Shown here one piece after another: positions 4,096 to 4,416 of a stretch of DNA of 64,000 nt. Position 1 is the first letter of the stretch; each line of letters begins with the position of its first letter. Below the pieces are notes generated by a model, which saw only the letters and a list, made by a program, of their open reading frames with translations, was not told the origin of the DNA and did no database searches. A program made the position numbers and the translations under genes. This DNA comes from a virus, in IMG/VR virus record IMGVR_UViG_3300045988_149609. One strand, written 5' to 3'.

Positions 4096-4180
4096 TTATT
4101 TTATGAAAGGCCCATAGTCCCTGAATATAAATAACTTAGCTGCAGCAATATTGTTATTATTAATTCAAACTATGGGATAT
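4096..4180 (+). repeat. Copy A of a conserved 85-nt structured inter-tRNA spacer element
   Basis: It shares the blocks TAGTCCCTGA, ATAACT, ATATTGTTAT and TTCAAACTAT with copy B. It contains a hairpin AATAAC…GTTATT with an inner palindrome GCTGCAGC. Confidence 0.55.
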
Positions 4181-4253
4181 GCTTCTATAGCTCAGTTGAT
4201 AGAGCAATGGTTTTGTACTCCATGTGTCATAGGTTTGAATCCTATTAGAAGCT
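4181..4253 (+). tRNA. tRNA-Thr(TGT)
   Basis: Acceptor GCTTCTA/TAGAAGC is perfect. D-arm GCTC/GAGC. Anticodon loop TTTGTAC with TGT at 4214-4216. T-arm ATAGG-TTTGAAT-CCTAT. Confidence 0.75.
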
Positions 4254-4258
4254 CAAAT

Positions 4259-4331
4259 GACGCTATCTTCTAAATGGTTAGAAAACAAGATTTTCAATCT
4301 TGTAATTTGGGTTCGATTCCCAATGGCGTTA
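4259..4331 (+). tRNA. tRNA-Glu(TTC)
   Basis: Acceptor GACGCTA/TGGCGTT, all paired with 2 G-U. Anticodon stem CAAGA/TCTTG, loop TTTTCAA with anticodon TTC. T-arm TTGGG-TTCGATT-CCCAA. Confidence 0.7.
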
Positions 4332-4416
4332 CAATTTAATATTTAATTCCTTGTAGTCCCTGATGTAGGATAACTAGCCATGGTGATATTGTTATCATTT
4401 CAAACTATAAGGTTAA
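4332..4416 (+). repeat. Copy B of the conserved 85-nt structured inter-tRNA spacer element
   Basis: Aligns with copy A block by block. The hairpin here is GATAAC…GTTATC, so its outer pair is G-C where copy A has A-T (a compensatory change). The inner palindrome here is CCATGG. Confidence 0.55.

Follow-up and report, generated by a model that had tools for sequence, protein, structure and literature searches.

The tRNA gene array of the virus record IMGVR_UViG_3300045988_149609 (IMG/VR) raises the question whether two similar spacers between its tRNA genes are copies of one structured RNA element, and what kind of element this might be. The stretch of 64,000 nt that was analyzed, here called the window, belongs to a crAss-like phage (large terminase gene at 8342-10618, portal gene at 10692-13106). 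Its nearest named phages are members of the Steigviridae, namely cr116_1 with 65% and crAss001 with 53% identity in the large terminase protein (TerL). Eight tRNA genes, all on the + strand, are predicted by ARAGORN between 3941 and 5488. An original prediction, made from the sequence alone, had described the two spacers as a repeated structured element with one compensatory base change. Our analysis shows that they are homologous copies of one element, that a basal stem (P1) is kept paired through double base changes, and that the element is present, absent or replaced among strains of the same phage species. A small structured RNA on the tRNA strand is the best reading of these observations.

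Two homologous spacers with a common architecture

Bounded by the ARAGORN tRNAs, the spacers span 4097-4180 and 4333-4416 and are exactly 84 nt long each; the predicted equal length is therefore correct, while the predicted size of about 85 nt and the coordinates were one base off. The blocks TAGTCCCTGA, ATAACT, ATATTGTTAT and TTCAAACTAT, which had been named as shared, all occur in both copies. The pattern AGTCCCTGA-N25-55-TTCAAACT was found exactly twice in the window and not once in 100 shuffles. Furthermore, a covariance model built from copy 1 only recovered copy 2 with E = 2.8e-5 in 114 kb; neither the window nor the 404 kb of related loci yielded a further credible match. The pattern count and the covariance model hence establish the homology of the two spacers. 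Their parts and the adjoining tRNAs are as follows.

4017-4096, + strand: tRNA body upstream of copy 1 with an aberrant 9-nt anticodon loop, AGAGAGGAA (ARAGORN; Rfam tRNA, 49.6 bits)
4097-4110, + strand: copy 1 linker, A/U-rich and single-stranded, UAUUUUAUGAAAGG (unpaired in the minimum-free-energy fold)
4111-4176, + strand: copy 1 structured core, 66 nt (folds, pair counts)
4111-4118 with 4169-4176, + strand: copy 1 P1, CCCAUAGU with ACUAUGGG (fold)
4119-4121 opposite 4168, + strand: copy 1 3x1 internal loop, CCC opposite A (fold)
4122-4126 with 4163-4167, + strand: copy 1 P2, UGAAU with AUUCA (fold)
4127-4162, + strand: copy 1 apical part, either P3 (AAUAAC 4130-4135 with GUUAUU 4153-4158, 17-nt loop) or two smaller hairpins
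4177-4180, + strand: copy 1 tail AUAU, 4 nt between P1 and the 5' end of tRNA-Thr (read from the sequence)
4181-4254, + strand: tRNA-Thr(UGU), directly 3' of the copy 1 spacer (ARAGORN; Rfam, 64.2 bits)
4259-4332, + strand: tRNA-Glu(UUC), directly 5' of the copy 2 spacer (ARAGORN; Rfam)
4333-4348, + strand: copy 2 linker, A/U-rich, AAUUUAAUAUUUAAUU (unpaired in the fold)
4349-4412, + strand: copy 2 structured core, 64 nt (folds, covariance-model match, strain variants)
4349-4357 with 4404-4412, + strand: copy 2 P1, CCUUGUAGU with ACUAUAAGG, including one G.U pair that is A-U in all other strains
4358-4360 opposite 4403, + strand: copy 2 internal loop, CCC opposite A (fold)
4361-4363 with 4400-4402, + strand: copy 2 P2, UGA with UCA (fold)
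4364-4399, + strand: copy 2 apical part, either P3 (GAUAAC 4369-4374 with GUUAUC 4391-4396, 16-nt loop) or a GGUGAUA-UUGU-UAUCAUU hairpin
4413-4416, + strand: copy 2 tail UUAA, 4 nt before tRNA-Arg (read from the sequence)
4417-4491, + strand: tRNA-Arg(UCU), directly 3' of the copy 2 spacer (ARAGORN; Rfam)

Both copies fold alike into a linker, P1 of 8-9 bp, the 3x1 loop, a P2 that starts with UGA/UCA, an apical region and a tail; within the linkers, UAUUU-AU of copy 1 aligns with copy 2. The core begins 14 nt (copy 1) or 16 nt (copy 2) after the upstream tRNA, and the distance from P1 to the next tRNA is exactly 4 nt in copy 1, in copy 2 and in the replacing element called type B below. The claim that each element ends where tRNA-Thr or tRNA-Arg begins is thus true of the spacer, whereas the structured core stops 4 nt earlier. 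The strongest helix, P1, went unmentioned in the original prediction, which had concentrated on the apical hairpin AATAAC/GTTATT versus GATAAC/GTTATC. This hairpin is present in both copies with the A-U versus G-C difference in its outer pair, but it is not the only possible fold. In a nested model, P1, P2 and P3 stack into an interrupted helix of 18-21 bp with internal loops; a three-way fold is equally compatible. The inner palindromes GCTGCAGC and CCATGG, also part of the earlier description, do exist, yet they do not exceed chance: 7% (GCTGCAGC) and 18-26% (CCATGG) of shuffled or random loops equal their length, and the latter reads CCATGA in strains L165 and L167.

Covariation and strand

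Base pairing was analyzed on a model-based alignment of the six distinct sequences of this type, here called type A; MAFFT misplaces the 5' strand of the P3 hairpin by one base, and the covariance-model alignment was used instead. At the P1 columns 16/79 and 17/78, C-G pairs of copy 1 are replaced by U-A pairs in copy 2, i.e. two double changes, and column pair 18/77 is A-U or G.U. P1 is also kept, with 9 bp, in type B, in which two inner pairs have changed from G-C and U-A to A-U and C-G, adding two more double changes. These four independent double changes across copy 1, copy 2 and type B are the main evidence that P1 pairing is probably under selection, and to this extent the original idea of maintained base pairing is supported, though on another helix. 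The register of P1 is well defined, since sliding the 3' partners by 1-3 columns lowers pairing from 96% to 36-48%. Pairing together with covariation beat all 500 shuffles, in an alignment that holds only six distinct type A sequences (two paralogues plus strain variants).

The situation differs for the apical part. The base in column 62 (U or C) can pair with column 34, forming P3 with its 16-17-nt loop, or with column 51, forming an alternative (A/G)GYRAUA-UUGU-UAUYAUU hairpin alongside a CUGA/UUAG hairpin. Columns 34 and 51 are both A in copy 1 and both G in copy 2. Because column 62 can thus pair with either of two co-varying partners, the A-U/G-C covariation, though real, is ambiguous, and the two models are close in the share of paired cells (96.4% in the nested versus 97.2% in the three-way model). 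Strain variants point in both directions. In L156, a change of G34 to A in the presence of U62 favours the nested model. In L141, U58 to C breaks the nested P3 and falls on a tetraloop position in the alternative, and in L165 and L167 the change of G49 to A improves a pair only in the alternative fold. The case shows that covariation between two paralogues can be real without identifying the helix.

Regarding the strand, three substitutions in copy 2 stems (A to G in the window, C to U in L122 and C to U in L142) leave the stem paired only through G.U or U.G of the + strand; on the - strand the same transitions would be C.A mismatches. L156 completes a path from G-C over G.U to A-U at columns 34/62. 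In 9 of 11 variants the better fold is that of the + strand, while copy 1 alone folds equally well on both. Collectively, the substitutions and the fold energies lend mild support to an RNA on the tRNA strand, in agreement with the originally proposed small structured RNA.

Occurrence among strains and exchange at the Glu/Arg slot

About 30 loci of the same phage species were collected from metagenomes through TerL and two neighbouring proteins, and more distant Steigviridae with 76%, 73% and 65-68% TerL identity were included (L numbers denote loci of either group). The loci of the species cluster are 85-99% identical in nucleotides to the window over the adjacent flanks. The element was not found in the Steigviridae at 76%, 73% and 65-68% TerL identity, and it is limited to the species-level strain cluster of one Steigviridae phage. 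Within this cluster, 5 of 25 loci carry copy 1 (the window, L132, L134, L135 and L141), with identical sequences in L132 and L135 and a variant in L141. The slot between tRNA-Glu and tRNA-Arg, compared in 22 loci, holds an intact type A element in 18 cases, type B in three (L132, L139, L141) and a truncated type A in one (L166). Type B is a 105-nt element that replaces copy 2 in the same slot, and its apical domain has homologs in the tRNA arrays of other Steigviridae.

L139 7076-7180, L132 7251-7366 and L141 7132-7236: type B, in the Glu/Arg slot
L117 and L128 7040-7105, L145 about 2552-2616: type B-like hairpin, in several Steigviridae tRNA arrays

Type B has in common with type A the linker, the outer P1, a CYC/A loop (CCC in type A becomes CUC), the UGAU...UCAA start of the next helix and the UUAA tail, whereas its P2 is 8 bp long and its apical domain shows no relationship to the type A one. 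The type B domain is homologous to a 66-nt hairpin in the tRNA-Leu/tRNA-Leu or tRNA-Arg spacer of L117, L128 and L145. In L117 and L145 the hairpin lies flush between two tRNAs after tRNA-Leu(UAA). The conserved core reads CUUGAAGGGUG..GAAAA..UAGACUUAC.GGACUAUUUAGACA, and the fold z-score of type B is -3.71. A covariance model derived from type A (R2) also detects type B, owing to the basal part and the flanks that both types share, with E of about 1e-4 to 1e-3. Searches of type B gave no Rfam match and no fit to an HDV-like fold. A connection of type B with the adjacent 200-aa gene was considered and rejected, because this gene is a sulfotransferase-like accessory gene without RNA connection.

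The module hence appears, from these comparisons, to be an accessory and exchangeable cassette, with none or one copy in the slot before tRNA-Thr and type A, type B or a truncated type A in the Glu/Arg slot. The element is clearly non-essential and dispensable, which argues against an obligatory processing signal. A processing signal for the tRNA precursor had been among the roles considered in the original prediction; for the likewise suggested role as endonuclease guide nothing was found in support.

Related arrays carry other non-tRNA modules. A spacer of 122-128 nt between tRNA-Asn and tRNA-Gln (L122 5083-5206) is kept in most strains (carriers L122, L132, L137, L139, L140, L142 and L154-L168) and deleted in the window. 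It has an 8-bp closing stem, UUUAAGCA/UGCUUAAA, ends 1 nt before tRNA-Gln, and shows no Rfam match and a fold z-score of only -0.54; it is a candidate for a further passenger RNA. Spacers of 146-148 nt between tRNA-Arg and tRNA-Leu (L113, L114, L115, L118, L119) and the segment L125 4608-4743 have the blocks CAACGUAACUC and GUCGUAGAA(C/U)C in common, although the phages are about 30% apart in TerL. They gave no Rfam match at gathering thresholds and might represent an additional conserved non-tRNA RNA. Finally, hairpins with a GUGA tetraloop on a UCU/AGA stem (UCUGUGAAGA) recur, with co-varying lower stems. In the window such a hairpin directly follows a promoter-like site.

3802-3833, + strand: promoter-like site of Bacteroidetes type (TTTG-N20-TAtcTTTG), by pattern match, in the intergenic gap before the first tRNA
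Window about 3845-3860, L113 about 6350-6385, L125 about 4500-4530 and L153 (crAss001) about 1584-1614: GUGA hairpins

The tRNA genes of the array are themselves unusual in part. The gene called as tRNA-Asn at 3941-4014 is a chimera of a tRNA-Asn 5' part and a tRNA-Gln 3' part, joined within an identical 22-nt T-arm segment, TAATCTAAGTTCGATTCTTAGT. The fusion removes the 122-128-nt module and most of the tRNA-Gln present in sister strains (L122 5010-5279), and only about 4 of 7 acceptor pairs of the chimeric tRNA can form. An assembly artefact is not the cause, because the independent assemblies L134 and L135 show the same junction. The following tRNA at 4017-4096 has the purine-rich anticodon loop listed above and lacks U33, and its counterpart in L141 (6818-6895) has a 7-nt loop AAAGGAA with anticodon AGG and A33. 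The window version has the appearance of a variant that arose by slippage in a GA repeat, and normal decoding by it may be doubtful. A comparison 3' of tRNA-Arg (window 4492-4679 versus L139 7256-8038, L132 and L166) revealed either a 41-aa open reading frame (ORF) alone or a 40-42-aa ORF together with a sulfotransferase-like gene of 116-200 aa; the 200-aa version of L139 matches Pfam PF03567 with E = 1e-6. HNH and GIY-YIG homing endonuclease genes are gained or lost among strains within the array, and the whole tRNA-array region is a recombination hot spot. Several independent assemblies of about 100 kb (L132, L142, L159, L161) stop at or near tRNA-Leu(UAA), equivalent to about 5400-5490 of the window, which may indicate that the genome terminus, a terminal repeat or a repeat at which assemblies break lies there.

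Possible nature of the module

The explanation that we favour, although we would give it slightly less than an even chance, is a non-essential hairpin RNA module of about 65 nt that is co-transcribed with the tRNAs and released by the processing of its neighbours. The module would be transcribed together with the tRNAs, starting at a host-type promoter that precedes the array. By its position, the site at 3802-3833 is a likely start of the polycistronic transcript carrying both elements, even if the Bacteroidetes promoter pattern occurs in the genome no more often than expected by chance. Cleavage by RNase Z or an equivalent enzyme would take place after the discriminator of the upstream tRNA and set the 5' end of the module, a type of cut that is expected because the upstream tRNAs have no encoded CCA, and the RNase P cut at the 5' end of the downstream tRNA, 4 nt past P1, would set its 3' end. 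The module could thus be released as a discrete small RNA by the "tRNA punctuation" route to non-tRNA RNAs, and the stable P1 with a 3' tail of only 4 nt might protect the product from 3' exonucleases. The element is in fact a structured non-tRNA sequence on the same strand as the tRNAs and bounded by tRNA processing sites. Moreover, stem-closed non-tRNA modules of 65-125 nt with unrelated sequences, which abut the next tRNA, are found in relatives and in crAss001, the 122-128-nt Asn/Gln spacer of sister strains being another example of this design, and this suggests that Steigviridae tRNA operons routinely carry such passenger modules. If a protein or nuclease recognizes the RNA, the likeliest surface would be the inner P1, the CCC/A internal loop and the UGA/UCA helix, because the CCC/A-type loop and the UGA/UCA helix are kept even in type B.

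In this regard it is of interest that the tRNA cluster of phage T4 encodes two small stable RNAs, species 1 and species 2, for which no function is known after decades. The element resembles them as a non-tRNA structured RNA encoded in a phage tRNA operon on the same strand. The T4 RNAs are co-transcribed with the tRNAs and matured by the tRNA-processing machinery, as the element would be, and they are dispensable, as it is. In contrast to the T4 RNAs, which at about 120-140 nt are about twice as long, the module is a hairpin of 64-66 nt without sequence relationship to them; its carrier is a crAss-like phage of Bacteroidota, and at a fixed slot type B can take the place of type A as an allele. 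In Escherichia coli, the 3'ETS of leuZ is a tRNA-operon spacer that sponges small RNAs. The mode proposed here is similar, i.e. a spacer that is freed by tRNA processing and acts as a small RNA. Spacers of the leuZ type act by single-stranded complementarity to known small RNAs, whereas the element is mostly double-stranded and has no target complementarity beyond chance: when the window was searched for antisense targets of the apical loops, nothing better emerged than an identity of 14 nt in the same sense within a coding gene (7174-7187), judged as chance. A more far-reaching version, which we regard as quite improbable, would make types A and B alternative alleles of a small-RNA cassette that is matured by tRNA punctuation, with a shared base for protein recognition (P1, CYC/A loop, UGA/UCA helix) and a swappable apical "payload". 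The cassette would serve as a counter-defence decoy or as a sponge for a host RNA-binding factor. Such an arms race would explain that no strain has an empty Glu/Arg slot, even if one holds a truncated element, and that the content of the slot differs between strains.

Several observations weigh against a selected RNA. The fold z-scores of the cores are modest (-2.85 for copy 1 and -1.62 for copy 2 against dinucleotide shuffles) and may be seen as suggestive, not compelling. The apical part fits the nested and the three-way model about equally well. Among the strain-level substitutions in stems, four keep pairing and three break it (C to A in P1 and U to C in P3 of L141, A to U in P1 of L156), which is close to the neutral expectation. 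Copy 1 is absent in 20 of 25 loci, where tRNA-Gln is followed by a 3-nt gap and then tRNA-Thr, and in L166 a 29-nt deletion takes the linker and the whole 5' strand of P1. Conservation in related genomes, the check proposed with the original prediction, does exist among the strains that are 85-99% identical over the flanks, but it is uninformative because it is no higher than in these flanks, and it does not extend to the next relatives. In addition, perfect inverted repeats would equally be kept by constraints at the DNA level. Taken together, the rival explanations of a passive spacer (RNase III site or insulator), of a relic that drifts and of a palindrome acting as DNA are about as probable as the favoured one.

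Among the rivals, a passive spacer keeps the most credit, though it is unlikely in our view. The helix would be an RNase III-type site that splits the tRNA precursor or a clamp against misfolding, and the excised RNA would have no function. An irregular helix of 18-21 bp has the general shape of phage RNase III sites as known from the processing of T7 early RNA, and the R1.1 hairpin of T7, with about 20 irregular bp and internal loops between units of a polycistronic phage RNA, is a close analog; the occurrence of other stem-closed spacers with unrelated sequences in related arrays would also fit. However, tRNA arrays usually do without such sites, most strains can dispense with the element, and RNase III cleavage is hypothetical here. 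Most neighbouring tRNAs of the array are only 2-7 nt apart without such an element, as are tRNA-Gln and tRNA-Thr in most loci with their 3-nt gap, and a generic clamp has no need of a conserved CCC/A loop.

It is likewise unlikely, and somewhat doubtful already in view of P1, that both copies derive from one duplicated spacer and drift as a functionless leftover of cassette shuffling. The highly mosaic array, with the chimera at 3941-4014, mobile modules and HNH and GIY-YIG genes, makes such leftovers plausible, as do the rarity of copy 1, the truncation in L166 and the pair-breaking changes in L141 and L156. Against this stand the four independent double changes that keep P1 paired, which drift would not produce (by a rough inference, its chance is at most a few per cent for each pair of such changes), and the intact element in the Glu/Arg slot of 21 of 22 loci, with L166 as the only truncated one.

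We consider it improbable that the element acts as DNA, be it as an imperfect palindrome for recombination or protein binding or as a miniature inverted-repeat mobile element. In the consensus forms of both copies, of type B and of the L117 element, P1 is a perfect inverted repeat (8-9 bp), as for terminal inverted repeats. This could be taken in favour of a DNA element, since matching terminal repeats would mimic covariation, and so could the equal folding of copy 1 on either strand. On the other hand, the loci compared show no target-site duplication, no dispersed copies and no precise insertion or excision; the core was never inserted or excised alone, and insertions or deletions take in a tRNA or cut into the element. 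A genome has one or two copies, which without exception lie within the tRNA array and have the orientation of the tRNAs, and the G.U-type substitutions become mismatches on the other strand. Database searches also speak against a mobile element. The exact pattern gave 110 matches in IMG/VR, which corresponds to the chance number, none with flanking complementarity or tRNA context. It gave five matches in 185,579 bacterial and archaeal genomes, four of which were re-extracted and had neither flanking complementarity nor an element-like interior. Comparison of each spacer with GenBank phages by blastn yielded only chance matches of 18-34 nt, mostly in coding genes.

Known families and activities were searched as well. 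Rfam reported only tRNAs, both for the region and the type B locus at E up to 10 and for 133 kb of window and relatives at gathering thresholds. A tRNA or tRNA pseudogene was rejected, as the spacers gave no RF00005 match at E up to 10 and nothing in the bacterial and mitochondrial modes of ARAGORN; blastn-short against 107 array tRNAs found only 7-9-mers with E above 1. Neither spacer contains an intrinsic terminator on the + strand (AUAU and UUAA follow P1) or, on that strand, a match to an internal promoter of the sigma-70 or Bacteroidetes (TTTG/TAnnTTTG) kind; the sole match of the latter kind nearby is the site at 3802-3833 ahead of the array. A small peptide was also discarded, with only ATG-AAA-GGC-CCA-TAG in copy 1 and none in copy 2. 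Inspection by eye only, including the CUGA box D, the GA.AG tandem and RYYYAAC/GTTRRRY ends, showed that consensus features of a C/D-box or kink-turn, a Y-RNA Ro-binding helix, an integron attC site or a CRISPR-repeat mimic are absent. The hammerhead, twister, pistol and hatchet ribozymes gave no match at E up to 10 or at gathering thresholds, and the hammerhead core CUGANGA is not kept by CUGAUGU, CUGAAUA and CUGAUAU.

Theta ribozymes often follow gut-phage tRNAs, mostly in phages of Bacteroidota hosts, with a proposed role in tRNA maturation, and begin at most 5 nt before or after the tRNA 3' end (Kienbeck et al. 2024, PMC10879173). The element is similar as a small structured RNA downstream of a phage tRNA in a gut Caudoviricetes phage. 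A self-cleaving ribozyme of the theta, minimal HDV-like or another small class that trims the adjacent tRNAs is nevertheless very improbable, given that no Rfam ribozyme, HDV types included, matches the spacers at E up to 10, that the core lies 14-16 nt after the tRNA end and thus outside +/-5 nt, that the A/U-rich sequence forms nested helices instead of the nested double pseudoknot with catalytic C, and that an HDV-like double-pseudoknot descriptor (our own approximation, not the published RNArobo file) fits neither copy nor the three type B elements while fitting 4-21% of shuffles. Resembling the T4 RNAs in kind and theta ribozymes in genomic niche, the element belongs to neither and represents a new, lineage-restricted sequence family of a kind of feature that is already known.

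The crAss-like phages are among the most abundant viruses of the human gut. The most interesting aspect of the present element is that types A and B replace each other as alleles with a common base, in a slot that none of the strains examined leaves empty. Strains with zero, one, two, truncated or type B copies provide a natural experiment on its function. If it is only a processing spacer or a relic, the element would be ordinary. If the favoured explanation of a released hairpin RNA is true, crAss-like phages would, like T4, employ the tRNA operon to deliver small RNAs other than tRNAs.

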